64,000 nt of DNA from Shigella phage CWP003: sequence record OL856099. One strand, 5' to 3'. Position 1 is the first letter of the stretch, and each line of letters opens with the position of its first letter. Of the stretch, positions 29,270 through 47,646 are shown in pieces. A model generated the notes under the pieces. It searched no databases and was not told where the DNA came from. It worked only from the letters and a program-made list of their open reading frames with translations. The position numbers were made by a program, and so were the translations under genes.

Positions 29270-29914
29270 ATGATTAATGCAAACGTAATATCTAAAGGGA
29301 CCGGATGCAGCATGGATGTTGCAGAGAAATGGGTGGACCATTTCAAGCAGGCTTGTGAGCACTACGGAATCAAAAGCAAGAATGCCATCGCGGCATTCCT
29401 TGCAAACGTAGGAGTAGAGACGGGCAGCTTGAAGACCTTTGTGGAAAATCTCAACTACTCTGCTCAAGGTCTTGCCAATACATGGCCTAGTCGTTACAGC
29501 GTCAACGGTCGCTCTGGAAGTGCCCCGAACTCATTGGCCCTGTCGATTGCCCGTAAACCTGTGGAAATCGCCAATAATACATATGCAAACCGCATGGGCA
29601 ACGGTTCAGTAGCATCTGGCGACGGTTGGAAGTACCGTGGCCGTGGTGCCATTCAGCTGACTGGAAAGGCCAACTATGCGGAATATACGCGTCAATCAGG
29701 CTATGATGCATTGAACAATCCTGATATTCTGACTGAACCAAAATACATTGCTGACAGCGCGGCATGGTTCTTTAAGAATAGCGGCTGTATTCCTCTTGCG
29801 GATGCAGGAAATTTTGATTCAACCGTTAAGCGGATTAACGGGGCCGCGCCGAACGCAGCAAACCACGGCGAGTTGCGAAGAAAGCGTTACAAGGATGCAT
29901 TAGCAGTTATGTAA
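29270..29914 (+). CDS. Endolysin, glycoside hydrolase family 19-like lysozyme
   Basis: 214 aa; motifs FLANVGVETGSL, NLNYSAQGL, DGWKYRGRGAIQLTGKANY, SAAWFF match GH19 phage endolysins as recalled from memory (no search run). Confidence 0.8.
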   Translation: MINANVISKGTGCSMDVAEKWVDHFKQACEHYGIKSKNAIAAFLANVGVETGSLKTFVENLNYSAQGLANTWPSRYSVNGRSGSAPNSLALSIARKPVEIANNTYANRMGNGSVASGDGWKYRGRGAIQLTGKANYAEYTRQSGYDALNNPDILTEPKYIADSAAWFFKNSGCIPLADAGNFDSTVKRINGAAPNAANHGELRRKRYKDALAVM

Positions 29915-29915
29915 G

Positions 29916-29946
29916 AAAAAGGCCCATATGGGCCTTTGTTTATTTT
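29916..29946. terminator. Bidirectional intrinsic terminator (AAAAAGGCCCATATGGGCCTTTGTTTATTTT)
   Basis: Perfect 6-bp GC stem with 2-nt loop flanked by an A-run and a T-run; lies between convergent genes. Confidence 0.55.
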
Positions 29947-30170
29947 ACGGCTTCAACTTGGACGGGCGGAGCGGAACTTGTATCAATGTCTGGCAAGTCG
30001 AAGTAATACCCCGCCATACCAATTGCACCCACAATCGCGGCCCGTGCCACCTTGTTGCTAATTGACTCCCCAATAAGCTTTACCAACAGGGATAAGATTT
30101 GAGACGTCAAAGCCTTTTTCAGCCTTTTGTTTTCTTCCAAATCTTTCTGCATAACTACCACCCATGTCAA
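29940..30170 (-). CDS. Small membrane protein, holin-like candidate
   Basis: 76 aa; hydrophobic segment AAIVGAIGMAGYYF; convergent with the endolysin. Confidence 0.3.
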   Translation of the reverse strand: MTWVVVMQKDLEENKRLKKALTSQILSLLVKLIGESISNKVARAAIVGAIGMAGYYFDLPDIDTSSAPPVQVEAVK

Positions 30171-30709
30171 CGCACTTCCTGTGTCTTAACATTACCTGAA
30201 GCATCTCTCAAGGGCAGTGGATAGTAGGCCATTTGGTAGTCTGATACGCCTTCAATGTGATAAAACACGATTACGTCTTTGCTGTTGATGAGCATGTTAA
30301 CGACATCTGATTTATCTTCTGGAGTGAGTATTAGTGCGCCGCCTGTCCTGCTGTCTACTGCAACAGGGTATGTCTTGTCGACAAGGCCGCTGTCCAATGT
30401 ATTATACCTGACAACGATTTCAGGGGCATCAACTTTTGCCATTGACATTCCGAACACAAACGACACGACCTGCCGACCGCGATCATTCATTACGCACATC
30501 TTTTCTTTGTCAAATCTTTCTTTTATTACGTCGTATTTATTCCAGCAAAACTCAAATGACTGCCCATTGTTAAAATATCTTGTCAAAACTTTTGCACTTC
30601 CATTCGGCGGCGTAAACATATTTTCAGCCGATGCAGTCTTGGTGAAGAATATAACTGTCAGCATAGCCATGATGATGATCAAAACAATCTTTAATTTGTT
30701 CGCTTTCAT
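30167..30709 (-). CDS. Secreted or periplasmic protein with N-terminal signal peptide
   Basis: 180 aa; N-terminus MKANKLKIVLIIIMAMLTVIFFTKTASAEN fits a signal peptide with an A-x-A cleavage site. Confidence 0.5.
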   Translation of the reverse strand: MKANKLKIVLIIIMAMLTVIFFTKTASAENMFTPPNGSAKVLTRYFNNGQSFEFCWNKYDVIKERFDKEKMCVMNDRGRQVVSFVFGMSMAKVDAPEIVVRYNTLDSGLVDKTYPVAVDSRTGGALILTPEDKSDVVNMLINSKDVIVFYHIEGVSDYQMAYYPLPLRDASGNVKTQEVR

Positions 30710-30884: not shown

Positions 30885-31862
30885 TTAAAAATACTCCATA
30901 TCGGTAATATCACGGAAGCACTTATACAAGGCAGAGCGCGGCACGTCAACTATGCCAAAGTTAAAGAATTTATATGTCAAATACTTGTTTCGATAATTCT
31001 CGCGATTCTCCCAAAGCATTTTTCTCTCTGCCATAGGCATTGAACCAGCGGAGACGCGGAAGGGAATCATTTCACCTTTCTCATCAACATATTTTGGATT
31101 GACAACCACAAATGATCCAAGGTATCCTTTTGCAACTAAGCCTTCAGCCTCTTTCGAACGCTTAGTGCGACCCAACTCATCAATGAATGCTTCGTTGTTA
31201 TTCTCCATCATCTCAACGAAGTCTATGATCAGTCCTTCTTCATCGGTCCACGGCTTGTCCTTCCACACATCACGTGACTTTGGCGTCGCGCGGCCATGCT
31301 TGTATTTGCCCGTCCAAGACTTGCCATACAAGCCTTCATAGCCAAGCTGGTCTGCTTCGATTTGCATCGCCGCGTACTGTTCCATATTTTCGATGTTTCG
31401 ATATTCGAGAGCGCGAAGGAATGGGCGTCGACCATGGTTGATGAGGTGCTGATTGACTTCAGCAACTCTAGCGCGATAGTTTGCATAACGCTTTTCAAAA
31501 GGCAAATCAGGGTCGCTGAAGTCATCAAACACCCACCATGTAAAGTTAGTGATTGCATCAGTGTTCATGCATGCAGTATAGGCCTGTTGCATGACGTTCT
31601 TGTCATTCGGATTACCGTCAATTAGCTCTCCATCAAGTCCGTGAATCAATTCACCCAAGAATAGGAACTCTTTTTTGATTTGAATGTTGCGCAGTGCCAT
31701 GCCGGATGTGCCCATTGGCAAGTTGTCATACGCCATCGCGCGTATTCCATCGACCTTGAAGGATAATCCGCAAGGCAGCGGCACATCTTCGCCGCGCTCG
31801 ATGATTTGTTTACGCTGGCAACCTTTCATTGGTTTTAATGCTTTGATTTCTCCTGCCATCAC
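30885..31862 (-). CDS. ATP-dependent DNA ligase
   Basis: 325 aa; nucleotidyltransferase motif I KVDGIRA (KxDGxR); size typical of phage ligases. Confidence 0.75.
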   Translation of the reverse strand: MMAGEIKALKPMKGCQRKQIIERGEDVPLPCGLSFKVDGIRAMAYDNLPMGTSGMALRNIQIKKEFLFLGELIHGLDGELIDGNPNDKNVMQQAYTACMNTDAITNFTWWVFDDFSDPDLPFEKRYANYRARVAEVNQHLINHGRRPFLRALEYRNIENMEQYAAMQIEADQLGYEGLYGKSWTGKYKHGRATPKSRDVWKDKPWTDEEGLIIDFVEMMENNNEAFIDELGRTKRSKEAEGLVAKGYLGSFVVVNPKYVDEKGEMIPFRVSAGSMPMAERKMLWENRENYRNKYLTYKFFNFGIVDVPRSALYKCFRDITDMEYF

Positions 31863-32452
31863 TCAAACTCCTTATTCATCACTTGTTCCAGCGCATAGGC
31901 ATAAGCCTGATCAGTCGATTTAATAAACGTTCCGTTGTACATCACACCTTTACGGTCCTTGATGTCTTCATAGGCGGCTTGAGCGCAATCAGACAGTCGA
32001 AGTCCATAATCATGCGCTACGCCGGAAAGATAATCGACTGCGGCCATGATAGTGACATCAATATCCATGCTTTGATTTTTAGCAATGGCGTCACCAAGCC
32101 GTCCGAGAGTCTTCGCCAAGCGAAGGATAAAGGAATGAGGGTGAGCGCCTTTGTCAGCGCAACCGCCTCCGTTGATGTCTTCGATTTTTGCACCATTTTG
32201 CGCGGCAAGAATAGTTAACACAACAAGGCAATCACCGATGTCGTCCTTGATTGCGGCTTGCAAATCACAAATGGCCTGCTCTGTATATCCGATTTCAGGG
32301 TCAAAGAACACAAGGTCATGGAGTTGATCCACGTGGTCGGTCAACTCCCCAAACTCGCTAATAAGCTTCGGGTATTGGTCTTTAAGGCCGCAACCTTTGA
32401 TGATGTTACGGTCAGAAGCCCATTGGCGAATGTTTGCATAAATCTGGTTCAT
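31859..32452 (-). CDS. mazG: MazG-like nucleotide pyrophosphohydrolase
   Basis: 197 aa all-helical protein; recalled similarity to phage MazG-family proteins; adjacent to ligase. Confidence 0.6.
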   Translation of the reverse strand: MNQIYANIRQWASDRNIIKGCGLKDQYPKLISEFGELTDHVDQLHDLVFFDPEIGYTEQAICDLQAAIKDDIGDCLVVLTILAAQNGAKIEDINGGGCADKGAHPHSFILRLAKTLGRLGDAIAKNQSMDIDVTIMAAVDYLSGVAHDYGLRLSDCAQAAYEDIKDRKGVMYNGTFIKSTDQAYAYALEQVMNKEFE

Positions 32453-34836: not shown

Positions 34837-36360
34837 TTAATTCATCTTTTTGCCGTCGAGGATGTGATCAGCAAGCATTGACTTCATACTGAGTGAACGC
34901 TGAATTTCTTCGTCGATGGTATCAACACCAATAAAATCAACATACAACACGCTTGATTTGGTGCCGATGCGGTGATTTCGGTCTTCGGATTGTTTGCGCA
35001 GCTCGTTGTCGTAGTTGCAAGAATAATAAATTGCCAAGTCAGCGGCGGTAAGCGTGATGCCGATGCCTGCCGCTGCAGCGTGGCAAACCAATACCTGTGT
35101 TCCACCATTCGCGACTGTGTTCTTCTGGAAGTCATCAATTAAGAACTCGCGCTGCTCTTTGGACGTTTCACCGTTGTATACACCAGTGACCACGCCTTCA
35201 GACTCAAGCCAGTCCTTAATCTGGTTCATCTCTTCCTTAAAGATGGCCCAAACGATGAATTTGCGCTCTGGGTCGTCTTCCAGCACCCCTTCCACATAAT
35301 CCTTAAAGGCCGTGAATCGTGGGTTGTCTTCCATGTAGACCATCTCATCATACACCTTAACAAAACCGGATGTCACCTGCTTCATCTTAGTGCGCGACGC
35401 GATCATCTCAAACTTGACGTTTTCTTCTTCGCCCTTGTATTCCATCAAATAGTTGTACTCATTCTTGAGTTCATCGTAAACATCGCGTTGTTTAGGCGAC
35501 AACTCGAAGTCAATAAACTTGTACACCTTCTCTGGAAGGTCAGGCAAGTATTCTGCTTTTGTTGCACGAAAATAGTGCGGTTCCATCAGCCGGATAAGCT
35601 TGTCAAGGTTCTTGTACATCGGTCGGCCAAACTGGTCTTTGCGCGGCACTTGCGGAATCCCATAGCCATTGCCGCCGATTTTCTTGAGGATGGCTTGCAT
35701 CTCTGGGTCGTGCGCTTCAAGCAGCACAGTGAATTCAGAGTTAAAGGCACGGAATGATTTGGTGCCGAGCAATCCTGCTTCAAGGAAGTGGTATTGCATG
35801 TAAATATCCGCAGGCGAGCGCGGCAACGGCGTGCCAGAAAGGATTCGACGGGCCTTTGCCAGCCGTCCCAATTCCACAACCTTGATGGAGCGTTTGGCTG
35901 TGTTATTCTTGATGCGCGTTGATTCGTCGATGATCATCAGGCAGCGGTACTTCTTCAAGACCGACTCGATGTGTTGATAACCGACTGGTGTGTTGACAGT
36001 ATCGATGTTGAATGAGAAGATGCGCGCAGGCACTTCGCCTTCGGGGTAGTGATCAGCAAACATCTTCTCCCAAAGCGCCTTGCCCTTTTTAGTTTTCATC
36101 TTGTCGTTGCCGCGCCAGTAGTGCCCAATCCACTTGATGGAAAGGTGCTCTGGCGCTTCACGACGAATCCAGTTTGAGTGGACACCGTTTGGAGCGATGA
36201 CTACCATGGCATCGAACGCGCCAGCGGTGAAGTGCTTTTCAAACTCTGCCAAAGCGGTCCAAGTTTTACCAAGACCCTGTTCCATGAAATAGGCAAAGTA
36301 TTTTCTGCGGCCTGCTTTATCAAGCGCCAGAAGCTGGTGGCGCATCCCTTGTGTTTTCAT
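34837..36360 (-). CDS. SNF2-family helicase / DNA-dependent ATPase
   Basis: 507 aa; Walker A-like GLGKT, DExx-like MIIDESTRIKN, SNF2-type ILSGTPLPRSPADIY. Confidence 0.8.
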   Translation of the reverse strand: MKTQGMRHQLLALDKAGRRKYFAYFMEQGLGKTWTALAEFEKHFTAGAFDAMVVIAPNGVHSNWIRREAPEHLSIKWIGHYWRGNDKMKTKKGKALWEKMFADHYPEGEVPARIFSFNIDTVNTPVGYQHIESVLKKYRCLMIIDESTRIKNNTAKRSIKVVELGRLAKARRILSGTPLPRSPADIYMQYHFLEAGLLGTKSFRAFNSEFTVLLEAHDPEMQAILKKIGGNGYGIPQVPRKDQFGRPMYKNLDKLIRLMEPHYFRATKAEYLPDLPEKVYKFIDFELSPKQRDVYDELKNEYNYLMEYKGEEENVKFEMIASRTKMKQVTSGFVKVYDEMVYMEDNPRFTAFKDYVEGVLEDDPERKFIVWAIFKEEMNQIKDWLESEGVVTGVYNGETSKEQREFLIDDFQKNTVANGGTQVLVCHAAAAGIGITLTAADLAIYYSCNYDNELRKQSEDRNHRIGTKSSVLYVDFIGVDTIDEEIQRSLSMKSMLADHILDGKKMN

Positions 36361-36779
36361 GACAATTCCTCTAAATACTTGATGATGTGATGAATAGTGC
36401 CCTTCACGATTATCTCACGTTGAACGTCTGCAATATTATAACGCTTTAATTCAATCGAAGGGTGGACTAAATAAAACATCTTCTCAGAATCGACTTTAAG
36501 CAAAACAAATGATGGGTATTTCCAATCATTCCACGAAGAAAGAAAGCTGCACTGACCTTTCTCAAATGCATTTCTGAAAGGTGCAGTGGTGGCCCTTGCA
36601 GGCCACGATTCAAAGAACTTCATTTCAAGCCAAAAGCCGCGCCCTTTCCGGTTGGTGCCGATTACGTCCGGCACACCATCACCCGTCATTGATTCGATTC
36701 TTTGAAGCTTCAAGATTGATTCTGAATGCTTCTTCAAAGGCACGAATATGTATTTCTGTTCACGGTTATTTGTTGCCAT
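36357..36779 (-). CDS. VRR-NUC domain nuclease
   Basis: 140 aa; GVPDVIG...GFWLEMKF matches the PD-(D/E)xK-like VRR-NUC core; coupled to SNF2 as is typical. Confidence 0.65.
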   Translation of the reverse strand: MATNNREQKYIFVPLKKHSESILKLQRIESMTGDGVPDVIGTNRKGRGFWLEMKFFESWPARATTAPFRNAFEKGQCSFLSSWNDWKYPSFVLLKVDSEKMFYLVHPSIELKRYNIADVQREIIVKGTIHHIIKYLEELS

Positions 36780-39663
36780 CTGGATACACCTGTTTGATCA
36801 CGTCGACGATAAACATGTCAATACCTTCAAGCTTGCGGCCTTTCATCAGAAAGAATGCGCCGTTCCCGACGTTCTCTGCAATGTACTTACCGTATTTCTG
36901 GAACTTCTCTGGGCGAATCCTGAAGCGCATTGGCGAGTCGGTCGAATCGTCCTTGCACATAAGGTCAATGAACTGAGTCTCAAGCTTGTTTCCATACTGG
37001 TCAAACTCTGCGTAGCGGCCATCAGCTTGAAGACCCTTTTTAAGTTTGCCGTGCTTTGTATAAATGCCGCGCTCAAGACGTTTACGGATGCGTGTCGCTT
37101 CGTTCTCGTCAGCCAGCACTTTCTTGGTCAACTTGCCGATTACTATTGCACGCTCGTCATCGCCGACTTCCTTCATCTGGCGTATTGAAGCACCGGAAGT
37201 AACGCCAATCAGATAGGGGTCATTATACGCCCAGCCAAACTTGGTGTGCATCTCTGTAAGGTCGCCGTATTTGACTTCAGCATTGGCCAATGCATCCTTT
37301 TGTTTTTGCGTTAAGGTTCCGGCTTCACGCGCTTCGATGTACTTCATCGCCTTCACCATTCCGTACCCTTTGGCATTCATTATGCCGCCGATTAGCTTTC
37401 CGTTAGCGATGGTCCAGTTCATTGAAGAGTGATCAGGGTCGATTGGCACATAATCCACGCCTTCCTTTGCAAGTTCACGTAATATCGCAATCGTCTGGTC
37501 TTCGTCCTTAGCAGCGCGTAAGCAAGCAGCGGCAAATTCCAACGGGTAGTGTCGTTTAAGCCACAAGGTCCAGTAAGTCACGACCGCGTATGACACGGAG
37601 TGTGACTTGTTAAAGCCCCATGACCCGAACGTCGCCATCGCCTGCCAAAGCTTTCTTGCATCCGCTTCCGGTACGCCGTTATTTATTGCGCCTGCAACGA
37701 AGTCTTCGCCAAGCTTGTTAAAGTATTCCTCACCCTTACGACCTGACATCGCCTTACGCACAGCTGACGTTTTCGCCCAGTCGAATGAACCAATCTCTTT
37801 AACCACGGCCATGATTTGCTCTTGGTAAAGAAACACGCCATAAGTCTCTTTTAAGTACGGCTCAAGCTGCGGCACGTCGTACTCAATCGGCGCACGTCCT
37901 GCCGCGCGTTCAATGTATTTCTGGGCCATACCGGACGACAACGGGCCAGGTCGGCCAAGTGCTGTCAGGTTATCGATTTTGTTAAAGTTATCAACGTGCA
38001 CAAAGTTGGTCACTGAGCGTACAGCGTCGCCTTCAAACTGGAAGATGCCTGACATCTTGTTTTCGTTAAGGATGTCAAGGACGCTTTGGTCATCAAGCTT
38101 GATTCCGTACAGCGTTTCAGCATCTATCACGCCAGTATCAGAAATGATTCCGAGGGTGCGAAGACCCAATGCATCAAGCTTCAAAAGGTTAAGGTATTCG
38201 CTGTCAGGCTTATCAATTTGTGCAATCCCTTCCGCCGTTACCGTACAGTAATCAGAGATTGGGTCATTACAAACGATGATTCCCGCTGCGTGAACGCCAG
38301 TGTGGGAAGGGTGAATCTCAAGGTCACCCATGCATCGCGCGGCATCGGGATATTTAGCCACAAACTCTTGGCCCGTGGTCGTTGTTGCAAAGGTGTCCTC
38401 CAGGCCGTGGCCATAACGGGCGTCACCGGATGAGTATTCAAGCAATGCGTTTTTAATGTTGGCCGTTTCGTGATATCCAATGTTGAATTTCTTACCAACC
38501 TGAGCCATTACTGAGTTGGCCTTAAGCGTGTTGATGTTGCCAAGTTTTGCAACGTTCATTTCGCCGTATTTTTCTTTAAGGTAATCAAACACCATATAGC
38601 GTTTGGTATCCTCAAAGTCAATATCAATATCAGGAAGGTCTGCGCGGCTTACGTCAATGAATCGGGCAAACAGTAGCTTATACGGGATTGGGTCGACCTC
38701 CGTGATGCCGAGGCAATAACAAACCAGTGAACCAGCCGATGAGCCGCGAGCGGGTCCGACGAGCATTTTTGTTTTTGCGAATCGTACAAGGTCCGCTACC
38801 ACCAGAAAGTATGAGTCGAAATCTTTCAGCTGAATCTGGTGAATCTCTTCGTTGAATCGGTCCTCATATTCCTGAGTCCATTCTTTGATGTGACCTGCCT
38901 TAAGGCGGTACTCCATCCCCTCACGAGCAAGCTTTACCATGTCACCAGCAAGGTGGATAATCGGTGCCTTGCGCAGCTTCAGGTCAAGCCCAACGATTCC
39001 ATTTGCAATATCAACCGCATTGGCCGTTGCTTGATTCAACTCGTCTTCGGTCAGGATTCCTTTAAGCTGTTTGCGCAAGTCTTCCGCGTCAACGATGCAG
39101 TGCGGCTTAACCGTGTCTCGAACTTCCCATGCATAAGCAAAGTCAACGTGCTCAGGTGAAGGCATGTGGTTGTATCCGGTTAAAACCAGCGGCCTTCCGT
39201 TGCTGCGGTGAGCCAATACCTGGCGCTTGGCCAAAAGGAACGATGATGGGTTGACGTCTATATAATCATAGTCCTCTGGCCGCAGCAGCTCCACGGCCCC
39301 GCCACAGAATTTAACGACGCCATCGAGCGCCCCGAACTCTGCACGGGTCAGTCCGCCGCGCTGTGTTGCAAGCGTGGTCGCGTTGTAAAAGGATTTCAGG
39401 TCAAGCGCCAATATCCAAGCCTTCGGTTTGAATCCCTTTTTCGGGTCCGCATCAGGGTCAATGATTGGAATCTCCATACCGAACATAGGCTTGATATCAT
39501 TCTTCTGACATTCCTTTTCCCATCGAACGTGACCCCATGTATTGTTATCAACTAATGCCGCGACTTCGCAGCCCAACTCTTTGAGCCGTGCTATAATTTC
39601 AGGATGCCGTCCATATACTTCTTTGAACGTGTAACCGCTGCGAACTCTCAATTGTGGAAACAT
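36766..39663 (-). CDS. dnaE: DNA polymerase III alpha-like replicative polymerase (DnaE family, PHP domain)
   Basis: 965 aa; N-terminal PHP-like region (VRSGYTFKEVYGRH) and overall DnaE-like core. Confidence 0.8.
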   Translation of the reverse strand: MFPQLRVRSGYTFKEVYGRHPEIIARLKELGCEVAALVDNNTWGHVRWEKECQKNDIKPMFGMEIPIIDPDADPKKGFKPKAWILALDLKSFYNATTLATQRGGLTRAEFGALDGVVKFCGGAVELLRPEDYDYIDVNPSSFLLAKRQVLAHRSNGRPLVLTGYNHMPSPEHVDFAYAWEVRDTVKPHCIVDAEDLRKQLKGILTEDELNQATANAVDIANGIVGLDLKLRKAPIIHLAGDMVKLAREGMEYRLKAGHIKEWTQEYEDRFNEEIHQIQLKDFDSYFLVVADLVRFAKTKMLVGPARGSSAGSLVCYCLGITEVDPIPYKLLFARFIDVSRADLPDIDIDFEDTKRYMVFDYLKEKYGEMNVAKLGNINTLKANSVMAQVGKKFNIGYHETANIKNALLEYSSGDARYGHGLEDTFATTTTGQEFVAKYPDAARCMGDLEIHPSHTGVHAAGIIVCNDPISDYCTVTAEGIAQIDKPDSEYLNLLKLDALGLRTLGIISDTGVIDAETLYGIKLDDQSVLDILNENKMSGIFQFEGDAVRSVTNFVHVDNFNKIDNLTALGRPGPLSSGMAQKYIERAAGRAPIEYDVPQLEPYLKETYGVFLYQEQIMAVVKEIGSFDWAKTSAVRKAMSGRKGEEYFNKLGEDFVAGAINNGVPEADARKLWQAMATFGSWGFNKSHSVSYAVVTYWTLWLKRHYPLEFAAACLRAAKDEDQTIAILRELAKEGVDYVPIDPDHSSMNWTIANGKLIGGIMNAKGYGMVKAMKYIEAREAGTLTQKQKDALANAEVKYGDLTEMHTKFGWAYNDPYLIGVTSGASIRQMKEVGDDERAIVIGKLTKKVLADENEATRIRKRLERGIYTKHGKLKKGLQADGRYAEFDQYGNKLETQFIDLMCKDDSTDSPMRFRIRPEKFQKYGKYIAENVGNGAFFLMKGRKLEGIDMFIVDVIKQVYPDGNK

Positions 39664-40205
39664 TATTTACTCCAGATGTCATATACGCCAATTTGTTGGC
39701 AGACTTTGTGCAGTAATATTACGTCGTCTAATGCACGGTGTTTCTGTTCATATTTTCCGAAATATAATTCATACAGCTCTTGAAGCTTAACTCTTCGGCC
39801 AAAAATAGGCAAGGTTTGCTCGACTGTACAAATGTTTATTTCTGGAAAATTAACATCACCAAGTGTAAGACCTTCGCGCTGTAGTGCATAATCAAGAATG
39901 TTCTTATCGAACGCATGGTTGTGCGCGATAGTTGCATCAGTCTTCTTGAAGATTTCTTTTAGCTGCGGAACGAAATGGATGAATGGTGGATTGCACTCAA
40001 GGTCTTCATTTGTTAATCCGGTAATCTTTGTGATGATTTCTTCAATCACAATTTCAGGATTAATTATGAACTCGAAAGTTTCAAGAATCTCTTTTCCATC
40101 CGTCAACAGGCCTGCAAATTCAATAGGGCGCGGCTGCATCCCAAGCGGCGCTTTCGGGTGCACGGTTAATCCGGTTGTTTCGAAGTCATAAGGGAGAAAT
40201 AACAC
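39663..40205 (-). CDS. DnaQ-like 3'-5' exonuclease (epsilon-like proofreader)
   Basis: 180 aa; Exo I motif LPYDFETTGL, later ...HNHAFDKNILD and ...HRALDDV; stop overlaps the dnaE start by 1 nt. Confidence 0.75.
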   Translation of the reverse strand: MLFLPYDFETTGLTVHPKAPLGMQPRPIEFAGLLTDGKEILETFEFIINPEIVIEEIITKITGLTNEDLECNPPFIHFVPQLKEIFKKTDATIAHNHAFDKNILDYALQREGLTLGDVNFPEINICTVEQTLPIFGRRVKLQELYELYFGKYEQKHRALDDVILLHKVCQQIGVYDIWSK

Positions 40206-40259
40206 ATTAGCCTCCTACAAAAAGGCCGCCCATTAGGACGGCCACAGATTCACGATTCG

Positions 40260-40811
40260 TTATACAGTGTACGGAGTACCGTCTTGATTCAACCGCACGA
40301 TGAACTTAAGGTCGACACCAATGATTTCACGCGTATCAAAGATCACATAGTTGTAACGACGCTGACCAGCAATGTTTGGGTTGGTGTGAGAGTCGGTCAC
40401 AACTTCCTGCGCAACCTGAATGCCTTCTTCTTTAAAGAACTTGCGCCATTCAGCAAGTTCAGCGGCAGTCACGTGCATACCAAGATGGCTAACCTGATTG
40501 TCGTGCGCATCGATGTATTCGATGTTTTCGTGAATCCAGTTGCAACCTTTTGTATAGTCAAGAATTTCAAGCTCAAGAGGCTTACCAGCTCCGCCATCGG
40601 TGCCGTTGCCAGCCTGATAGTTGAAGCGCAAGTCAGCTTCGTTGGTGCAATCGCCGCGCTGACCCTTAAAGACATCAGCTTCAAATACGCGACCAGTAGC
40701 AACAACGTGATCATGGAACCATTCTGTCAGGCCGATTTTAGCCAGGAAATTCTGTGCGCGCTGAGCACCTGGAATTGACAGGGCGATTTGTTCAATTTTA
40801 AAATGTGGCAT
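40260..40811 (-). CDS. Hypothetical protein (possible small-molecule-binding enzyme)
   Basis: 183 aa track ORF at the edge of the enzyme cluster; no confident motif. Confidence 0.4.
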   Translation of the reverse strand: MPHFKIEQIALSIPGAQRAQNFLAKIGLTEWFHDHVVATGRVFEADVFKGQRGDCTNEADLRFNYQAGNGTDGGAGKPLELEILDYTKGCNWIHENIEYIDAHDNQVSHLGMHVTAAELAEWRKFFKEEGIQVAQEVVTDSHTNPNIAGQRRYNYVIFDTREIIGVDLKFIVRLNQDGTPYTV

Positions 40812-40901
40812 TTTGTTTCCTTAATTAAATATTATTGATTAATTACTGTGTTGTCTTCGTCCTGTTTTTCAGGAGCAGCGACAACTTCAAATGTTCTTGA
40901 T

Positions 40902-41585
40902 TTATTTACCAAATGGAATATCAGTACCAGACATAAAGCGCCATGCGCCCGTAATTAAGATATGGCGAATGAAGTCAGCAATTACTTGCGGCTCAGTCTC
41001 CAATCCATTCATCAGCGCCTTTTTCTGGTATTCAGCAGCATACTCAGGAGTCCAGCCGCGAGTCGCGCAAACAGCATCTTCAATCTGTTTGGACATGCCA
41101 GTACCACGTAGCTTGTTAGGACTAATAGAGAATACCGTGATCCCGTATTTAGGCGTAAGCTCGTGAGCCATCTGCTTGCTAATCATGAGCGCAGCAGCCT
41201 TGGAAGCATTATAACACAAGCTGGACGTCATAGGAATATGCGCAGCGTTGGAAACGATGTTGATCACAAAACCTTTGTTGTCAATAAGACTTTTCAGCGC
41301 GGCCTGAGTCGTGTTGACGAAAGAGAAGGCGTTGGTGTGCATAACGCGATTGAACTCTTCGTAGTTAACATCTTCGAACCAGTTGTTGGAGTTGACGCCA
41401 GCGCAGTTGATCAAGCCTTCTACGTCGTATTGAGAGAGAAGCTCTTTCATCTGTTTCGCGTTACGGATGTCATAGCCGTTCTCCAAATCAATACCGACAA
41501 CTTCATGACCGTAAGCGCCAAGGGTGTCAAAAATGGATTTACCAAGACCGGAATTGCAGCCAGTTACAACAATTACTTTTTTCAT
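40902..41585 (-). CDS. Short-chain dehydrogenase/reductase (SDR)
   Basis: 227 aa; cofactor-binding TGCNSGLGKSI (TGxxxGxG) and catalytic YNASKAA (YxxxK). Confidence 0.75.
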   Translation of the reverse strand: MKKVIVVTGCNSGLGKSIFDTLGAYGHEVVGIDLENGYDIRNAKQMKELLSQYDVEGLINCAGVNSNNWFEDVNYEEFNRVMHTNAFSFVNTTQAALKSLIDNKGFVINIVSNAAHIPMTSSLCYNASKAAALMISKQMAHELTPKYGITVFSISPNKLRGTGMSKQIEDAVCATRGWTPEYAAEYQKKALMNGLETEPQVIADFIRHILITGAWRFMSGTDIPFGK

Positions 41586-41650
41586 TTATTTATCCTTTTT
41601 GGACTTCGTTTCGATGAGATAAATATAACTCATCGAAACGCACAAGTAAA

Positions 41651-42523
41651 CTATTTATTGAAATTAATATTATGGGTGTTGACAAGACGTTCACACATGG
41701 CGCTGTAAACACCATCATCGTGTATTGAGTCTTCGTGCTTCAGGCCGCTGATTGCGAAGCGTGTAAGCTTGACAATCTTAAGCTCGAACAGATGCCACAT
41801 GTGGTAGTCTTCCGGCGTTTTCAACGTCACGCCATTAGGGAAAAGCACCTGCATAACCTGACCTACCATCACAGCGTTATCGCCATAGACCGCGTTGCGC
41901 TCACGGAAGGTTGCTGCCATCGCATCAAGAATATCGGCGGCAGTTGCCGGAGATTGTTCAACTTCCACAGCCTTAGTCTCTTCTTGCCCTGTTGCACTTG
42001 GATCAATTGCTAATTGTTGCACCACTTCACCTGCCTTGCAAAGATTAAATGTAAAAGCGATTTTATTTTGAGCAACGGAATTATAATACAATGCTTCATC
42101 TTGCATCCGCGCGAGTACGTCTTGTCGGTCGTCGAATACATTGATGATTCGATAATCGCCGTGCCGCAATGCGTGCGACAGCCATGCAGATTTCATAATA
42201 GTTGATGGACGTTTGTCGCCATAGTCTCTCATCTTGATTGTAAATTCATCAAAAGGGAAAACATTGTCCAGACGTTCAAAAGTCACTTGTCTGTATTTTT
42301 CTGGCCTTGCAGTCCAATATTCAACCGCCTCACCGCGAAGAGAGGCCGACTCTACTGCTGATGCAATGTGAGGATAGAACTGATCATAACCAATACCGCT
42401 GTGATAATCATCATAGTCTGACAACGGACCTGCCACCTTGATGCGGTCTAAGCGCCAACGGTCATCAAACAGCGTTCCGTCAAGGTCGAATACGTTTAAG
42501 ATTTCGCTGTTTTTAATGCTCAT
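41651..42523 (-). CDS. HAD-superfamily phosphatase
   Basis: 290 aa; motif I VFDLDGTLFDD (DxDGT) near the N-terminus. Confidence 0.6.
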   Translation of the reverse strand: MSIKNSEILNVFDLDGTLFDDRWRLDRIKVAGPLSDYDDYHSGIGYDQFYPHIASAVESASLRGEAVEYWTARPEKYRQVTFERLDNVFPFDEFTIKMRDYGDKRPSTIMKSAWLSHALRHGDYRIINVFDDRQDVLARMQDEALYYNSVAQNKIAFTFNLCKAGEVVQQLAIDPSATGQEETKAVEVEQSPATAADILDAMAATFRERNAVYGDNAVMVGQVMQVLFPNGVTLKTPEDYHMWHLFELKIVKLTRFAISGLKHEDSIHDDGVYSAMCERLVNTHNINFNK

Positions 42524-43323
42524 CCTTTTGATACTCCATCTTTAGCAACTGGATTGTTGGTGATTGGCATCGCACTCCAAAACTGGATGCGCAACTCTTC
42601 TTGCTGTGCCGTGGTATCCATCCAATCACGATACCAAGGGCAATGGGCTTTACCGTGACGAGGAAATGCGCACTTACCCATACCAATGCATTGCGGCTGC
42701 AGTAATGGATTCGCCCAAGGGTGCACCTTGAGGACTTCCGCAACCATTGCGCGGAATACTTCTTGATACTCTCCTTGCGTGCGCGTGCACAAGCGGTTTG
42801 ACGCCATCTGCTGCAGCGTGCGCAAGTTGAACTTTGCCATGATATGCGTTTGCATATTAGAAGGCAACACGGCACGTGCATCTTGAATCTCTGCGCCAGC
42901 CGCGCGAAGCTCTTGATACAAAGCGTCGATAGTCGCCATCGCATCATCCCACTTCTCTGCCAGTTCAGCTGCCTTCTCGTCATGGCGAGTCCATCCCTTT
43001 GGATCATCCTCTGGGTAAGTGAATTTAGCAGGACGAATCGCATCAAATGCAGACGACTCCTGAGCGCGGCTGGTGCGTTCTTGATATGCGCCTGTGCGTG
43101 TGCGTACCATCTGATGGGTCATGTTCTTTGATACAGCTGTGATATCAAAGATATAGTCCACAAAGTCAAAAGGCGACTTGATTGTATCAAGCATGTAGCG
43201 CCAATGCTCTTGCTTCTCTGATTCCGTCATCTCAGAGACAGGCTTACCAGTCATGCGCGTGTTCTTTGTTTCCAGCAAAAGGTCAAGTGCATCTTGGGTG
43301 TATCGAATTAATTCAACTTTCAT
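42520..43323 (-). CDS. ThyX-like flavin-dependent thymidylate synthase homolog with divergent signature
   Basis: 267 aa; VRTRTGAYQERTSRAQ aligns to the ThyX signature RHR-x7-S-x-R with His-to-Thr and Ser-to-Thr changes; a second ThyX-like stretch LRTLQQMASNRLCTRTQGEYQEVFRAM. From memory of the family, not a search. Confidence 0.55.
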   Translation of the reverse strand: MKVELIRYTQDALDLLLETKNTRMTGKPVSEMTESEKQEHWRYMLDTIKSPFDFVDYIFDITAVSKNMTHQMVRTRTGAYQERTSRAQESSAFDAIRPAKFTYPEDDPKGWTRHDEKAAELAEKWDDAMATIDALYQELRAAGAEIQDARAVLPSNMQTHIMAKFNLRTLQQMASNRLCTRTQGEYQEVFRAMVAEVLKVHPWANPLLQPQCIGMGKCAFPRHGKAHCPWYRDWMDTTAQQEELRIQFWSAMPITNNPVAKDGVSKG

Positions 43324-43336
43324 TTTAATTGTCCTA

Positions 43337-43783
43337 TTAACGGTAATTCACTAGTTGCTGATCACCAGAGAAGGTGCAATGATAAACGAATTGTGCGTTA
43401 TAAAGCAACTGAAAACTTTTCTTTGGTTCATTATTAGAACTCATTGATGTAAAGATTTCTGCACCAGAACGGTTTTCACCAATCAGATTGATAAAGCCGC
43501 CAGTTGAACGAGGTTGAACGAAAGTGAAACGTTGCATCCACGGAGTCCGGTTGACACCTTTTCCGGTGAATCCTTGAATCTGAATATTCAGACCTTCTTG
43601 CTCATTCACACCGATGTAAGTGGTAATCTTCGCACCAGTCGTTGCTGCGGTCTTACCGTCCATCGCTTCGCAATCGTAAACAGCGATTGAATCGGAAGTA
43701 CGGATGGCGGCTTCAGTCGCTTCCATATACATGGTGCCGAGAATAGCAGTTGCGGCAAGCGCGATTCCAGTGATTCGTTTCAT
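43337..43783 (-). CDS. Secreted protein with signal peptide (function unknown)
   Basis: 148 aa; N-terminus MKRITGIALAATAILGTMYMEA; no enzyme motif recognised. Confidence 0.5.
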   Translation of the reverse strand: MKRITGIALAATAILGTMYMEATEAAIRTSDSIAVYDCEAMDGKTAATTGAKITTYIGVNEQEGLNIQIQGFTGKGVNRTPWMQRFTFVQPRSTGGFINLIGENRSGAEIFTSMSSNNEPKKSFQLLYNAQFVYHCTFSGDQQLVNYR

Positions 43784-43848
43784 TTTCGTTTCCTCTATGA
43801 GTTCTGCTTCAATGATTAAAGTATACGCCCATTGAAGCAGAAAGCAAA

Positions 43849-44844
43849 TTATTTATTAGCAATATAAGCAAATTTTTGATAGTTATTTGCTTTGATGAGT
43901 TTTTCGACTTCAACAAGGTCATGAGCGACGTCATCAAGCAAGATATTGCGCCAGGTCGCGAATCGACCGACACTAAACACGTTTAAATCCATAGTCAGCT
44001 GCAGGAGTAGGGCGTGTCGCAAGTCTTTCGGAATGTCGACAATCTTGCCATATTTCTGGTCGACCTTTTCAACTTCTTCAAGAGCAATGTCACTCCATGA
44101 AAGGCCAAAGGCCGTCAACACTTCGTCGACTTCTGCGCGCAGCTTCATGTCACGGTAACGAGTGATGCCGCCTGCGGCTTCAACTGCAGCTTCACTCACG
44201 CTGACCAAAGGAATTGTTTCAATGATAAGCGTGTCACCAGTAATTGATGCGCGGTAAGTTCTGACGGAGTAGTCAGGGAAGTAAATTGTCTGATACAAAT
44301 CACACTTACGTTTAATCTTAAAGCGGTAAACGCGAATGTTTGCTTTATCAAATGAGAAATCAAGCTTTTGATCAATTCCAGCAAGCTTCATCATGACTGG
44401 CAGCGGCGACGTGTTGATGATTGGCGTCTCGCTATAGCCGCAAAGAGTATCAACCGGAGTATTAAAGAATATGCGGTCACCCAGTTTGTCGACAAGCTGA
44501 TCATAAAAGTCATCAGGCGCAATATAACGCGTTGCAGTCTTAAGCTTCATGATTGAACGGCTGCCAAATTGATTGGTGACCTTCATGGAATACATATTGG
44601 CAAGGTTGATTGGGCAATGGTCGTGATAGTAGTTGCCGCGAAAATACACAGCCTTGTCAACTGTCACGGCCTTAAAAGGGATTCCGGTAATACGGCTTAC
44701 TTCTTCGCCGCGAAAGCGTAGCAGCGCCTTGTGCTGTTGCGCTCGTTCCCCTGCTTCGTACACAATAGAGTTCGGGAAGTGACACGCGGTGATAAGTCCT
44801 GCCAATCCGCCGCCGATAATCATTACAGGTTGTTTCATGTTCAT
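43849..44844 (-). CDS. FAD/NAD(P)-binding Rossmann-fold oxidoreductase
   Basis: 331 aa; N-terminal dinucleotide-binding motif VMIIGGGLAGL (GxGxxG). Confidence 0.6.
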   Translation of the reverse strand: MNMKQPVMIIGGGLAGLITACHFPNSIVYEAGERAQQHKALLRFRGEEVSRITGIPFKAVTVDKAVYFRGNYYHDHCPINLANMYSMKVTNQFGSRSIMKLKTATRYIAPDDFYDQLVDKLGDRIFFNTPVDTLCGYSETPIINTSPLPVMMKLAGIDQKLDFSFDKANIRVYRFKIKRKCDLYQTIYFPDYSVRTYRASITGDTLIIETIPLVSVSEAAVEAAGGITRYRDMKLRAEVDEVLTAFGLSWSDIALEEVEKVDQKYGKIVDIPKDLRHALLLQLTMDLNVFSVGRFATWRNILLDDVAHDLVEVEKLIKANNYQKFAYIANK

Positions 44845-44976: not shown

Positions 44977-45822
44977 TTATTCCGCTTGATCACCGTCTTC
45001 GGCATCTTCGTTGGGTTCAACATCGACAAACTCGATGTGGCCCATCTCTTCCAGCTTGCTCAGGTAGGAGCGAACGGAAGCGCCAAACAGTTGATCTTTA
45101 ACTTTTTCGCCCAGCTCATCGATAGACTGCGCCACGCCAACTTCGCCTTCTTTGATCGCCGCCAGAACGCGTCCACGGGTGGAATGCTCTTGCGGCTGGC
45201 TCAGGCCATTGCCAGTGTAGATGAAGTGAGTAGCTTTTGCACGACGTTGACCGTTTGCCTTTTTAGCGGCCTTACGTTCTGCGATGGCTTTGCGACGTTC
45301 TTCAGCTTCTTTCTTACGCTGTTCTTTCTGTTGTTCTGCAGCTTCTTTCGCCGCAATCTTAGCAGCTTCACGCTCTGCCTTGCGTTTCGCTTTAGCTTCT
45401 TCTTTGGCCTTCTCTTTTTCGGCCTTCGCTGCAGCACGGGCTTGATCACGCTCTGCTTTCTTAGCAGCAGCTTGTTCAGCTTTCAGGCGCTTGGCTTCTT
45501 CTTTAGCCTTTGCCTTTTCGATTTCTTTTGCTGCTTTAGCGGCTTCACGCTCTGCTTTCTTAGCAGCAGCCTTTTCTGCACGCTCTTTAGCTTTCTTAGC
45601 TGCTTCTTCAGCACGCTTCTGAGCCTTCTCATCAGCAGCCTGCTTGCGTTTCAGGGCAGCTTCTTCACGCTTGGCTTGTTTTTCCTGCTCACGCTTCTGG
45701 CGTTTTTCTTCGGCTTCTTTCTTTTTAGCCAGACGTTTTTCTTCAGCCACGCGACGGCGTTCTGCTGCAGCTGCTTGCTTTTCTTCTTTAGATAATACTT
45801 TGATTGCTTCGGCCATATTCAC
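44977..45822 (-). CDS. Lys/Ala/Glu-rich histone H1-like protein with globular C-terminal domain
   Basis: 281 aa; about 180 residues of KAAE/KAKE-type repeats, then a globular C-terminal region and an acidic tail (EDAEDGDQAE). Confidence 0.55.
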   Translation of the reverse strand: MNMAEAIKVLSKEEKQAAAAERRRVAEEKRLAKKKEAEEKRQKREQEKQAKREEAALKRKQAADEKAQKRAEEAAKKAKERAEKAAAKKAEREAAKAAKEIEKAKAKEEAKRLKAEQAAAKKAERDQARAAAKAEKEKAKEEAKAKRKAEREAAKIAAKEAAEQQKEQRKKEAEERRKAIAERKAAKKANGQRRAKATHFIYTGNGLSQPQEHSTRGRVLAAIKEGEVGVAQSIDELGEKVKDQLFGASVRSYLSKLEEMGHIEFVDVEPNEDAEDGDQAE

Positions 45823-45975: not shown

Positions 45976-47160
45976 TTAACGCGCTTTCAAATCACGGTAC
46001 ACGGTCAGATTCTTCTTAGCGCGGGTGATGGCTGTGTACATCATCTTGGCATACGGAACGCCGCGCAAGATTTCTTCTAGCACGCACACATTGTCCCACT
46101 CGCTGCCTTGCGATTTGTGCACCGTTATGACATAGCCATAGTCCATGCCTCCAACAGCGCGTTGAGCCTCTTTGCGCACTTCCTGATCAGTAGAGAAGGA
46201 AAGAGGATTTATCTTCACCTTTATATCTTTGCCATCGGTAAGCGAGCGCAAATTGACATACATGATTTCATTAGACTCGTCTTCATCCCTTTCAAAGTCC
46301 GGTACTGGCTCATAACTAATAACAATCCCTTGCTCGCCATTACAGAATCCTGGACCGTGTTGATTGAATGTGCAAATAACTTTCTCGCCGATTCCTGGCA
46401 TTGGCGTTATACGTCCGCTCACTTGGCGCAATAATGAATTCCATTTATCTTTGGTGCTATTATAAGAGCAAATAATTTGATCATCTTCGCCCATGAATTT
46501 CTTCAGTGCGGTAACGCGCGGCGATTCAGCCAACACCTTTACGTCATCGTATTCACGCGGAGGAAGTCGGTTGCCCTGTCGCACGAAGAAGGAAGCGCGG
46601 ATTATGTTTGACTCTTTCCCCTGCCGCATGATTTCGGTTAACAGTACGTCAACGGCATCTTCAGTGAAGTAGGCGGCGGCTTTTACCGGAGGGACTTGTC
46701 CAATGTCGCCTAATGCCAGGACAGGGATGCGGTGATCAAGAAGGCGCTCTGTGTCCCACTCACCGACCATTGAAGCTTCATCAAGGACGACAAGGTGCGG
46801 CCTTTCATCAAGCGTTGACTTTCTTGCGAAGATTGGTTCATTGTCATCGTTAACGCCGCGCACGTTATAGATGAACTGGTGAAGGGTCTTAGCGCCACGA
46901 CAACCTTTTTGCTTTAATCGGCTGGCGGCCTTTCCGGTCGGCGCAATATAAATGGCACCGTACTCACCGACACAACGGCGCACAATCTCACGCGCAATAG
47001 AGGTTTTACCTGTTCCTGCATAGCCAGCGATGAAAAACACGCGCTTCGTCGTTTTACCGTCCTGCAATCGCTTGTACCATGCAACGGCCTTTTCGATGGC
47101 ATCAATCTGTTGCGCGTTGAACTGAATCACTGGCTCATTATTAAATTCTGGAATGTTCAT
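45976..47160 (-). CDS. SF1 DNA helicase (RecD/Dda/Pif1-like)
   Basis: 394 aa; Walker A GYAGTGKTS, Walker B-like VVLDEASMV. Confidence 0.75.
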   Translation of the reverse strand: MNIPEFNNEPVIQFNAQQIDAIEKAVAWYKRLQDGKTTKRVFFIAGYAGTGKTSIAREIVRRCVGEYGAIYIAPTGKAASRLKQKGCRGAKTLHQFIYNVRGVNDDNEPIFARKSTLDERPHLVVLDEASMVGEWDTERLLDHRIPVLALGDIGQVPPVKAAAYFTEDAVDVLLTEIMRQGKESNIIRASFFVRQGNRLPPREYDDVKVLAESPRVTALKKFMGEDDQIICSYNSTKDKWNSLLRQVSGRITPMPGIGEKVICTFNQHGPGFCNGEQGIVISYEPVPDFERDEDESNEIMYVNLRSLTDGKDIKVKINPLSFSTDQEVRKEAQRAVGGMDYGYVITVHKSQGSEWDNVCVLEEILRGVPYAKMMYTAITRAKKNLTVYRDLKAR

Positions 47161-47486
47161 TATAACTCCACTACGCTTTCAAGGTCCAGATATACTGGAA
47201 TAAAATGGCAATCTTCTTTTCGTTCAAACATCTCACCGTCAACGTGACTGAAGAAAACAGTCGTGTTTGGTATCTTCCACCCTTTCTCGTCGCGCACCAG
47301 GTACGCCATGGATTCAACAGGGATGTAAAGCGATACCGGATTTGCGGCAAAGATGAATTTGATTCTGTCTGGTTGACCCAGGAATCGCATAATTGTAAGA
47401 CTTGAATTCAGTCTTGTATTAAGGAAGGACTCAACGATTCCGACGTGTGTCGCACGTTCGCGTTGCTTCGTATCTTTTTCGTTCAT
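47160..47486 (-). CDS. Hypothetical protein, first gene of the leftward replication operon
   Basis: 108 aa track ORF directly downstream of a leftward promoter. Confidence 0.45.
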   Translation of the reverse strand: MNEKDTKQRERATHVGIVESFLNTRLNSSLTIMRFLGQPDRIKFIFAANPVSLYIPVESMAYLVRDEKGWKIPNTTVFFSHVDGEMFERKEDCHFIPVYLDLESVVEL

Positions 47487-47524
47487 TTCAGGCGACCTTT
47501 GTTAGTGCGGAAATATTTTCTGAT

Positions 47525-47553
47525 AGTATAATTGCAGATATAGTATAAAGCAA
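47525..47553 (-). promoter_or_regulatory. Leftward sigma70-like promoter (TTGCTT, 17 nt spacer, TATACT on the minus strand)
   Basis: Read from the reverse complement of the divergent intergenic region. Confidence 0.4.
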
Positions 47554-47589
47554 AGTAAATCGAAATTGTGAACTAAATGGTAAATATTG

Positions 47590-47617: not shown

Positions 47618-47646
47618 GCAGGTATTGATCACCGAAGGAAAGAAAG

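Follow-up and report, generated by a model that had tools for sequence, protein, structure and literature searches.

Four overlapping genes on the minus strand follow a terminator-like hairpin in Shigella phage CWP003 (sequence record OL856099; the window, i.e., the whole stretch of DNA that was analysed, is 64,000 nt long), in the order exonuclease, dnaE, small nuclease, and SNF2 helicase. Over the window, identity to Escherichia phage vB_EcoM_WFH (genus Wifcevirus) is 99.9%, and other Wifcevirus genomes share 94–97% identity with the region. The hairpin (40224–40243, minus strand; an 8-bp stem with 7 G-C pairs followed by TTTTT), found by a scan and in the sequence itself, separates the exonuclease gene from the upstream gene (end at 40260) and defines where the exonuclease–dnaE–nuclease–SNF2 block begins; a terminator is annotated at the equivalent place in phage Mansfield. 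The exonuclease gene (39663–40205, minus strand, 180 aa) starts with GTG, and direct reading of the sequence places an AGGAGG Shine-Dalgarno element (40211–40216, minus strand) 5 nt ahead of it, which is a strong ribosome-binding site. Its TAA stop codon (39665–39663) shares one base with the ATG (39663–39661) of dnaE (36766–39663, minus strand, 965 aa) in a TAATG junction (39661–39665, minus strand); the minus-strand sequence here is GGAGTAAATAATG, with a GGAG located 6 nt ahead of the dnaE start codon. The gene of the 140-aa nuclease (36357–36779, minus strand) overlaps dnaE by 14 nt and the SNF2 gene (34837–36360, minus strand, 507 aa) by 4 nt (ATGA), so that the SNF2 ATG lies over the nuclease stop codon. 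The open reading frames described in a first-pass annotation of this DNA all exist on the minus strand, and the stop/start overlap that it placed at 39663 is real; the SNF2 gene is situated just beyond the range that it gave. Nothing substantive differs from the myoviruses of Wifcevirus and of the PB1-like Pbunavirus (WFH, Mansfield, Bas98, chumba, and JJ01), which have the same genes in the same order with the one-base overlap; this junction is also annotated in Bas98, Mansfield, and the Pbunavirus chumba, and ORF86–89 of the Pbunavirus JJ01 have the matching gene order (PMC9583000).

The 965-aa product is a DnaE-type C-family DNA polymerase. It was matched by the Pfam models DNA_pol3_alpha (3e-63, 214 bits, cut-off 23.9) and DNA_pol3_finger (1e-37, 129.5 bits, cut-off 22), by phrog_405 (3.8e-271), by the alpha subunits of Taq and E. 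coli in the PDB (sequence matches at 1e-85), and by TIGR00594 (475 bits, cut-off 434), while the Pfam PHP model barely passed its threshold (8e-6, 26.7 bits vs. 26.4). The AlphaFold2 model (mean pLDDT 86) aligned with full-length Pol III alpha of Mtb, Taq, and E. coli in Foldseek (TM 0.68–0.74), and its PHP fold aligned with the PHP domains of the alpha-epsilon chimera 4gx9 and of full-length alpha structures. The layout is approximately a variant PHP (residues 1–240), palm/thumb (240–500), fingers (500–730), a helix-hairpin-helix region (735–830), and an OB fold (838–959), the latter with five strands and one helix in the model and with local Foldseek matches to the OB domains of RPA. Hence the PHP, palm, and OB elements that the first-pass annotation had proposed to look for were all found by Pfam, AlphaFold2, and Foldseek, and the catalytic aspartates on which it had made the polymerase assignment depend are present: D345 (38629–38631), D347 (38623–38625), and D497 (38173–38175; all minus strand) align with the palm residues D401, D403, and D555 of E. 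coli and are invariant in the alignment of all 114 family members.

The PHP domain has lost most of its metal ligands. At the nine metal positions, taken from PMC3666897, the phage DnaE carries R6, R8, E15, N40, E64, a gap, G122, H166, and P168, and the family consensus is similarly degenerate. Because of this degenerate ligand set, the domain counts as a variant PHP as the term is used in the same study, in which ligand loss was found to co-occur with a separate epsilon. The best overall structural matches, the DnaE1 of Mycobacterium and Thermus (7pu7, TM 0.74; 2hpi, TM 0.70), have all nine ligands and proofread in cis, whereas at least five were lost in the phage protein. The Pol III core of E. 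coli (DnaE as alpha, DnaQ as epsilon, and theta) shares with the phage proteins the three aspartates, the loss of metal ligands in the PHP, an OB fold at the C-terminus, and a DEDDh exonuclease encoded by a gene of its own, at approximately 30% identity for DnaE and 26% for the exonuclease vs. DnaQ. In contrast to E. coli alpha, no tau-binding C-terminal domain was found in the phage DnaE, whose chain ends with the OB fold (965 vs. 1160 aa), and no QADMF-like (Qxx[LM]F-type) beta-clamp motif is conserved across the 114 homologues. When the alignments of both the DnaE and the exonuclease families were searched for clamp-binding patterns, no conserved match turned up where such a motif could plausibly lie; an E-I-G-x-F with partial conservation was dismissed as it is located within the fingers domain. 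PolC of Firmicutes is likewise a C-family polymerase with a DEDDh exonuclease, but there the exonuclease is inserted in the PHP of a single polypeptide with an N-terminal OB fold, whereas the phage encodes its exonuclease separately and its polymerase follows the DnaE topology (PolC models score approximately 45 bits).

We considered whether this homologue could be an accessory polymerase, either error-prone (DnaE2-like) or host-modulating, with the phage genome being replicated by the host Pol III. Such a role was raised for Pbunavirus, where the subunits were speculated to "modulate or interfere with host DNA polymerase" (PMC9583000), and the score of 496 bits on the bacterial DnaE1 equivalog falls below its cut-off of 1002. 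Nevertheless, the DnaE1 models are preferred over the error-prone DnaE2 model (496 vs. 331 bits), the tau-binding domain and clamp-binding motif required to join the host holoenzyme are missing, the gene is universally conserved in the lineage, and it is part of a complete phage replication module that also comprises a primase, helicases, and a ligase, all of which make an accessory role highly improbable. In the complete Bas98 genome, DnaE is the only polymerase annotated.

The gene upstream of dnaE encodes a DnaQ-like DEDDh 3'-5' exonuclease, a putative proofreading subunit. The DEDDh set is complete, with D7 and E9 (Exo I DxE, 40179–40187), D100 (Exo II, 39906–39908), and H156 and D161 (Exo III-epsilon Hx4D, 39723–39740; all minus strand), and is conserved across 72 exonuclease homologues; the protein was matched by Pfam RNase_T (1.6e-21, 77.9 bits, cut-off 24) and by phrog_192, "DNA polymerase exonuclease subunit" (1.9e-37). 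The claim that the DnaE alpha subunit comes with its own exonuclease of DnaQ type in a separate gene was thus borne out by Pfam, PHROG, residues, fold, and gene overlap. The relationship to epsilon itself is less close: TIGR00573 gave 35.3 bits (cut-off 71.5), the scores stayed below all NCBIfam epsilon cut-offs and, for the epsilon equivalogs, far below, and the best sequence match in the PDB was the PolC-type exonuclease domain 2p1j (6e-6). The chain ends 19 residues past the Exo III motif (180 aa vs. 243 in E. coli epsilon), so that residues 190–243 of E. coli epsilon have no counterpart in the alignment; this missing C-terminal segment of approximately 55 residues is the one that binds the PHP of alpha in E. 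coli. As there is no epsilon-type tail, a physical complex between alpha and the exonuclease is not implied by homology, although the two proteins may associate. The clamp motif of E. coli epsilon is absent as well.

These differences leave room for a free-standing DEDDh nuclease that is not a proofreader and acts instead in the degradation of host DNA or RNA, in primer or flap trimming, or in the destruction of immune nucleotide signals. This would agree with the lack of the alpha-binding tail, with scores below the epsilon cut-offs and about equal similarity to PolC-type, DinG-type, CRISPR-associated, and epsilon exonuclease domains, and with the observation that none of the 120 closest DnaE homologues is fused to the exonuclease. 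The genomic context argues otherwise, as the exonuclease gene was found directly upstream of dnaE on the same strand in 76/76 related IMG/VR viral loci that hold the upstream DNA, down to a DnaE identity of 35% and often with overlapping codons, which strongly suggests that the two genes form a functional pair. Moreover, with a degenerate PHP in DnaE no other proofreader is evident, and the reported co-occurrence of ligand loss with a separate epsilon points in the same direction. We therefore regard a free-standing nuclease as unlikely and a proofreading function as the probable one. A PADLOC scan returned only generic DEDDh and SNF2 domain matches and no sign of defence or anti-defence.

The first-pass annotation had also described the two genes as translationally coupled. 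The overlap of stop and start codons is consistent with such coupling in this phage, but judging from the sequences of relatives it may not be a general property of the pair: the genes overlap or lie within 30 nt of each other in 41 of the 76 loci, the overlap being absent in about half, and in Wifcevirus AV128 a 50-aa ORF is located between them. The E. coli genes dnaE and dnaQ, at chromosomal positions of approximately 205 kb and 236 kb, are not linked, in contrast to the overlapping phage genes.

The 140-aa protein downstream of dnaE has a PD-(D/E)xK core fold with a GxPD...ExK...Q signature, in which D38 (36666–36668), E52 (36624–36626), K54 (36618–36620), and Q76 (36552–36554; all minus strand) are invariant. 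The assignment is based on an exhaustive HMMER homologue search, a family profile, and a structure model, as a word-indexed search recovered only 6 homologues; a PDB search with the single sequence gave nothing or spurious lectin repeats and was discarded. Over its whole length the protein is similar in fold to the Holliday-junction resolvases RecU and Hjc, at only 13–20% sequence identity to the structural matches. None of the Pfam models of RecU, Hjc, or stand-alone VRR-NUC resolvases reached its threshold on the protein, which had no Pfam match even at E = 10; among 85 homologues, VRR_NUC was matched by three (best 0.0027), and RecU and Hjc by one each. The family profile hit the VRR-NUC structure 4qbo marginally (E = 0.0044) and RecU at E = 0.012. 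The earlier VRR-NUC label is consequently right with regard to a RecU/Hjc/VRR-NUC-like PD-(D/E)xK fold, but not with regard to the VRR_NUC family (PF08774) itself, and the protein may cleave four-way junctions. Since other records usually mislabel this gene as "DNA helicase" or "hypothetical", its recognition as a predicted junction nuclease of the RecU/Hjc/VRR-NUC-like group is of some value for annotation. The SNF2 neighbour proposed in the first pass was confirmed as a SNF2-family helicase/translocase by SNF2-rel_dom (8e-22, 78.1 bits, cut-off 24.9), Helicase_C (6e-11, 43 bits, cut-off 23.5), and phrog_62 (2e-106), its start being given by the junction sequence. The Pfam matches of the polymerase, the exonuclease, and the SNF2 protein all exceed what chance would give by a wide margin.

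Elsewhere in the replication region, we identified a 394-aa Dda-like SF1 helicase (45976–47160, minus strand; Pfam AAA_30 and UvrD_C_2, phrog_325 "Dda-like helicase" at 2.5e-99), a 360-aa RepB'-type primase (47647–48729, plus strand; RepB_primase 4.1e-36, 125 bits, cut-off 24.3; phrog_4861 "DNA primase" at 3.8e-198), and a 556-aa VapE/VirE-like P-loop NTPase, a candidate primase-associated helicase (50039–51709, plus strand; VapE-like_dom 1.6e-28, 100.1 bits, cut-off 25; phrog_4630 at 3.2e-255 and phrog_256 "DNA helicase" at 8.9e-36). The RepB' primase is one that we take to belong to the AEP superfamily, and the AEP primase and VirE NTPase announced for the other strand were accordingly both recovered. 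A 331-aa neighbour had no sequence match in the PDB. No clamp, clamp loader, DnaB, or DnaG was recognisable, the annotation of the complete Bas98 genome lists neither of the first two, and, in contrast to E. coli Pol III, the phage does not encode theta either. The description of a bacterial-type replisome is therefore appropriate for the polymerase core, but not for the primase and helicases, which are of plasmid/virus type, nor for the remaining replisome components.

Taken as a whole, the region is very probably the DNA-replication core of a virulent Wifcevirus myovirus (WFH), built on a DnaE-type polymerase with an exonuclease that would proofread in trans. According to this model, phage DNA would be synthesised by DnaE through the canonical three-aspartate palm, the PHP would be structural rather than catalytic because most of its metal ligands are lost, and the exonuclease would supply the proofreading; with its gene immediately upstream and often overlapping, both proteins could be co-produced in matched amounts. 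Priming and unwinding would be carried out by the RepB'-type primase, the VapE-like NTPase, and the Dda-like helicase instead of DnaG or DnaB, while branched intermediates of replication or recombination are probably the substrates of the resolvase-like nuclease and the SNF2 motor. The polymerase may also work independently of a sliding clamp, bearing in mind that the absence of a motif is not proof thereof. A more speculative extension, which we consider possible but somewhat doubtful, is that the clade carries a self-sufficient, minimal two-protein C-family replicase, in which DnaE needs no clamp, tau, or theta and the exonuclease binds through a contact unrelated to that between the C-terminal peptide of E. 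coli epsilon and the PHP. If true, processivity and proofreading would have been solved independently here within family C, and this could bear on reports of a very short latent period in Wifcevirus. We found no biochemical studies of this clade's clamp-less two-gene C-family core in the literature. Because none of the known holoenzyme interfaces (the epsilon tail, the clamp motifs, and the tau domain) is present in the pair, the two proteins would offer a compact system in which to study how a C-family polymerase proofreads and stays processive when the bacterial accessory subunits are missing.

C-family enzymes are rarer in phages than those of families A or B, as had been noted in the first pass and in agreement with the literature (28/415 viral polymerases; PMC3201878). 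The arrangement of DnaE with a separate exonuclease is nonetheless ordinary and already known, being common to hundreds of related phages, and as a discovery it is minor: sequence records with the same annotated genes exist already, labelled Pol III alpha and epsilon in the GenBank entries of WFH and Pol III alpha/epsilon or "DNA polymerase/exonuclease subunit" in other Wifcevirus records. Several hundred genomes sequenced from Pbunavirus and Wifcevirus carry the module, and some of these phages are used in phage therapy. Some longer relatives of the DnaE carry an insertion of approximately 255 aa at residues 686–689 (with an intein Pfam domain in P0115), and others one of 40–90 aa near residues 785–812. 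The split dnaE of phage Ro157lw was considered as a possible intron or mobile element, but is instead a tandem duplication of approximately 126–132 bp or an assembly artefact.

The ORF listing places four genes on the minus strand precisely as the first-pass annotation had described them, namely an exonuclease gene (39663–40205, 180 aa, GTG start), the DnaE-type polymerase gene dnaE (36766–39663, 965 aa), a small nuclease gene (36357–36779, 140 aa), and an SNF2 helicase gene (34837–36360, 507 aa), the identity of the last being likewise confirmed. The reported stop/start overlap at 39663 is present (minus strand, GGAGTAAATAATG): the TAA stop of the exonuclease gene and the ATG of dnaE share one base, and GGAG is located 6 nt 5′ of that ATG. 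The dnaE and 140-aa genes overlap by 14 nt and the 140-aa and 507-aa genes by ATGA, while upstream of the exonuclease gene a terminator-like hairpin (40243–40224, minus strand; 8 pairs, 7 of them G-C, then TTTTT) is followed by AGGAGG, 5 nt ahead of the GTG start. Given these overlaps and upstream elements, the four genes look like a single tightly packed expression unit, in which exonuclease and dnaE would be translationally coupled. The module very probably represents the phage's own replicative polymerase core, in which DnaE would perform DNA synthesis, the co-expressed DEDDh exonuclease would associate with it and proofread in trans, and the resolvase-like nuclease together with the SNF2 motor would process branched intermediates.

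The 965-aa protein matched Pfam DNA_pol3_alpha (3e−63) and the fingers domain (1e−37), with PHP borderline (26.7 bits vs. a cut-off of 26.4), as well as PHROG 405 "DNA polymerase" (3.8e−271) and, in a PDB sequence search, the Taq, E. coli, and M. tuberculosis Pol III alpha subunits (1e−79 to 1e−85). To see whether catalytic aspartates were missing, which would undo its designation as a polymerase, it was aligned with DnaE of E. coli (30% identity); all three were found, D345, D347, and D497 aligning with D401, D403, and D555 and being invariant in 114 family members, so the designation stands. Barros et al. (PMC3666897) list nine metal positions for the PHP domain; these read R6, R8, E15, N40, E64, a gap, G122, H166, and P168 in the phage protein and, for its family as a whole, R, R, N/D/E, variable, E, gap, G/A, D, and P. 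Judging by these residues, the PHP domain is of the "variant", presumably non-catalytic kind and would be structural; such domains are reported to go together with an epsilon-type proofreader encoded separately (PMC3666897). The AlphaFold2 model (input of 54 homologues; mean pLDDT 86, pTM 0.79) resembles the full-length Pol III alpha structures 7pu7, 2hpi, and 5fku (TM 0.68–0.74) and contains a five-stranded OB fold at residues 838–959, after which the chain stops, the tau-binding domain of the E. coli subunit having no equivalent. No conserved Qxx[LM]F-type clamp motif was found in the 114 homologues.

Among NCBIfam models, the polymerase scored above the cut-off of the C-family superfamily TIGR00594 (475 vs. 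434 bits) and below that of the bacterial DnaE equivalog (496 vs. 1002 bits), with DnaE1 (496 bits) ahead of error-prone DnaE2 (331 bits) and PolC (~45 bits), and the DnaE is the sole polymerase annotated in a fully annotated Wifcevirus genome; that it is an accessory or error-prone enzyme has little support and is very improbable. The same genome has no annotated clamp or clamp loader, no clamp turned up when the window's replication region was scanned with Pfam and PHROG, and the single match there to a clamp loader, on the Dda-like helicase (phrog_168, E 2.5e−4), was a marginal generic P-loop hit. A sole polymerase without a clamp, which would then act clamp-independently, is consistent with the survey of Kazlauskas and Venclovas (PMC3201878), where viral C-family polymerases were rare (28/415), kept the PHP-to-fingers architecture, had divergent C-termini, and mostly came without clamps. 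All of the closest 120 homologues belong to phage-sized contigs or named phages (hosts Pantoea, Serratia, Luteibacter, Xanthomonas, and Burkholderia), and the phage dnaE is an old phage lineage gene rather than a recent E. coli capture. Some relatives (P0096 and P0115) carry an insertion of ~255 aa at the equivalent of residues 686–689, inside the conserved GFNKSHS motif, that of P0115 being accompanied by an intein-splicing Pfam domain, and four others (P0049, P0050, P0053, and P0104) are longer by 40–90 aa where the helix-hairpin-helix region passes into the OB fold.

The 180-aa protein matched Pfam RNase_T (1.6e−21) and PHROG 192 "DNA polymerase exonuclease subunit" (1.9e−37), and its complete DEDDh set (D7, E9, D100, H156, D161) shows conservation across 72 homologues; the top PDB match was the PolC-type exonuclease domain 2p1j (6e−6). 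Unlike E. coli epsilon, it ends 19 residues past the last DEDDh motif and therefore has neither the clamp motif nor the C-terminal segment by which epsilon is held on the PHP domain of alpha. The earlier label "DnaQ" holds at the superfamily level, where "DnaQ-like" is justified; the protein fell under every curated NCBIfam cut-off for epsilon. The strong basis for a putative proofreading subunit is genomic context: of 80 related IMG/VR loci (DnaE identity down to 35%), 76 hold upstream sequence, and all 76 have an upstream same-strand exonuclease gene, which overlaps dnaE or sits within 30 nt of it in 41. Beside this conserved neighbourhood, a free-standing nuclease with another role, tether-less as the protein is, finds little support and appears improbable. 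The putative proofreading pair is of mild interest in that proofreading and processivity would be achieved by a polymerase and exonuclease lacking clamp, tau, and epsilon tail.

The overlap is not universal among relatives; in Wifcevirus AV128 a 50-aa ORF (locus positions 3611–3763) lies between exonuclease and dnaE, and the overlap is thereby lost. No exonuclease–DnaE fusions occurred among the 120 closest DnaE homologues. In another phage of the genus, Ro157lw, dnaE contains an internal tandem duplication of ~126–132 bp (locus ~1223–1480), which may be an assembly artefact, and is annotated as two CDSs.

Aligned along its whole length, the region shares 99.9% identity with Escherichia phage vB_EcoM_WFH (genus Wifcevirus; Korf et al. 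2019, PMC6563267) and 94–97% with ~25 further Wifcevirus genomes. The pair is annotated in Wifcevirus records as "dnaE: DNA polymerase III subunit alpha" and "polC", in Mansfield and SP13 as "DNA polymerase III alpha" and "DNA polymerase III epsilon", and in the BASEL phages Bas98-101 as "DNA polymerase" and "DNA polymerase exonuclease subunit". Pbunavirus phages of Pseudomonas have the identical order of exonuclease, dnaE (one-base overlap), small protein, and SNF2 helicase, published for phage JJ01 as ORF86-89 (PMC9583000). The finding of a DnaE with a separate exonuclease is thus correct, yet already known.

No Pfam domain was detected in the 140-aa protein, even at E = 10. An exhaustive HMMER search gave 96 homologues, and in an 85-sequence alignment drawn from them D38, E52, K54, and Q76 are invariant, a PD-(D/E)xK signature. 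VRR_NUC was weakly matched by 3/85 members, Hjc and RecU by one each, the family profile hit VRR-NUC 4qbo (0.0044) and RecU (0.012) in the PDB, and AlphaFold2 modelled the protein with confidence (pLDDT 94.9). It belongs with the Holliday-junction-resolvase-like nucleases of the RecU/Hjc/VRR-NUC neighbourhood and would cleave junctions; the proposed "VRR-NUC" label survives at the level of the PD-(D/E)xK superfamily, whereas membership of that family is not established. The public labels, "DNA helicase" (through PHROG 2165) or "hypothetical", therefore appear wrong. In phage Mansfield the gene is annotated from an internal start (110 aa), but E7 and E29, both N-terminal to the internal Met, are conserved in the family, which supports the 140-aa start as the probable one.

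On the opposite strand, the expected primase and VirE NTPase were recovered as a RepB′-type primase (47647–48729, plus) and a VapE/VirE-like NTPase (50039–51709, plus); a Dda-like helicase lies at 45976–47160, and an ATP-dependent ligase at 30885–31862 has weak Pfam matches and is annotated in the Wifcevirus genome. The replication machinery is a mosaic of a bacterial-type polymerase core and plasmid/virus-type priming and unwinding, so the term "bacterial-type replisome" fits the core and is otherwise too broad. Gene orientation flips at ~47.5 kb (47486–47647), where the minus-strand Dda-helicase block and the plus-strand primase block diverge, and at ~30 kb (about 29900–30200), convergent with the tail/lysis block; the GC skew changes sign at both switches.

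The genes immediately 5′ of the exonuclease gene (40260–44844, minus) form a nucleotide, redox, and flavoprotein-like cluster, perhaps a candidate pathway for modifying DNA or nucleotides. It encodes a 183-aa protein with a weak glyoxalase-like match, an SDR/FabG-like reductase (40902–41585, minus), a HAD/PNKP-type phosphatase (41651–42523, minus), a ThyX homologue (42520–43323, minus), a 148-aa protein of no assigned family, and a 331-aa protein whose N-terminus bears the dinucleotide-binding motif GGGLAG; for the last of these, the Mansfield annotators obtained an HHpred match to UDP-galactopyranose mutase. Farther downstream (31859–32452, minus) there is a MazG-like gene. The nucleotide-metabolism genes are separated from the Dda-like helicase gene by that of a 281-aa protein (44977–45822, minus), which consists of ~190 extremely K/E/A-rich low-complexity residues and then a short globular C-terminus, and matches phrog_4765 (function not assigned) and no Pfam family. 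The ThyX signature is RHRxxSxxxxSxRY; at its position (residues about 73–86) the phage homologue reads RTRTGAYQERTSRA, with His replaced by Thr, the first Ser by Ala, and the final Tyr by Ala, and despite these changes its Pfam Thy1 match is solid (2.9e−30).
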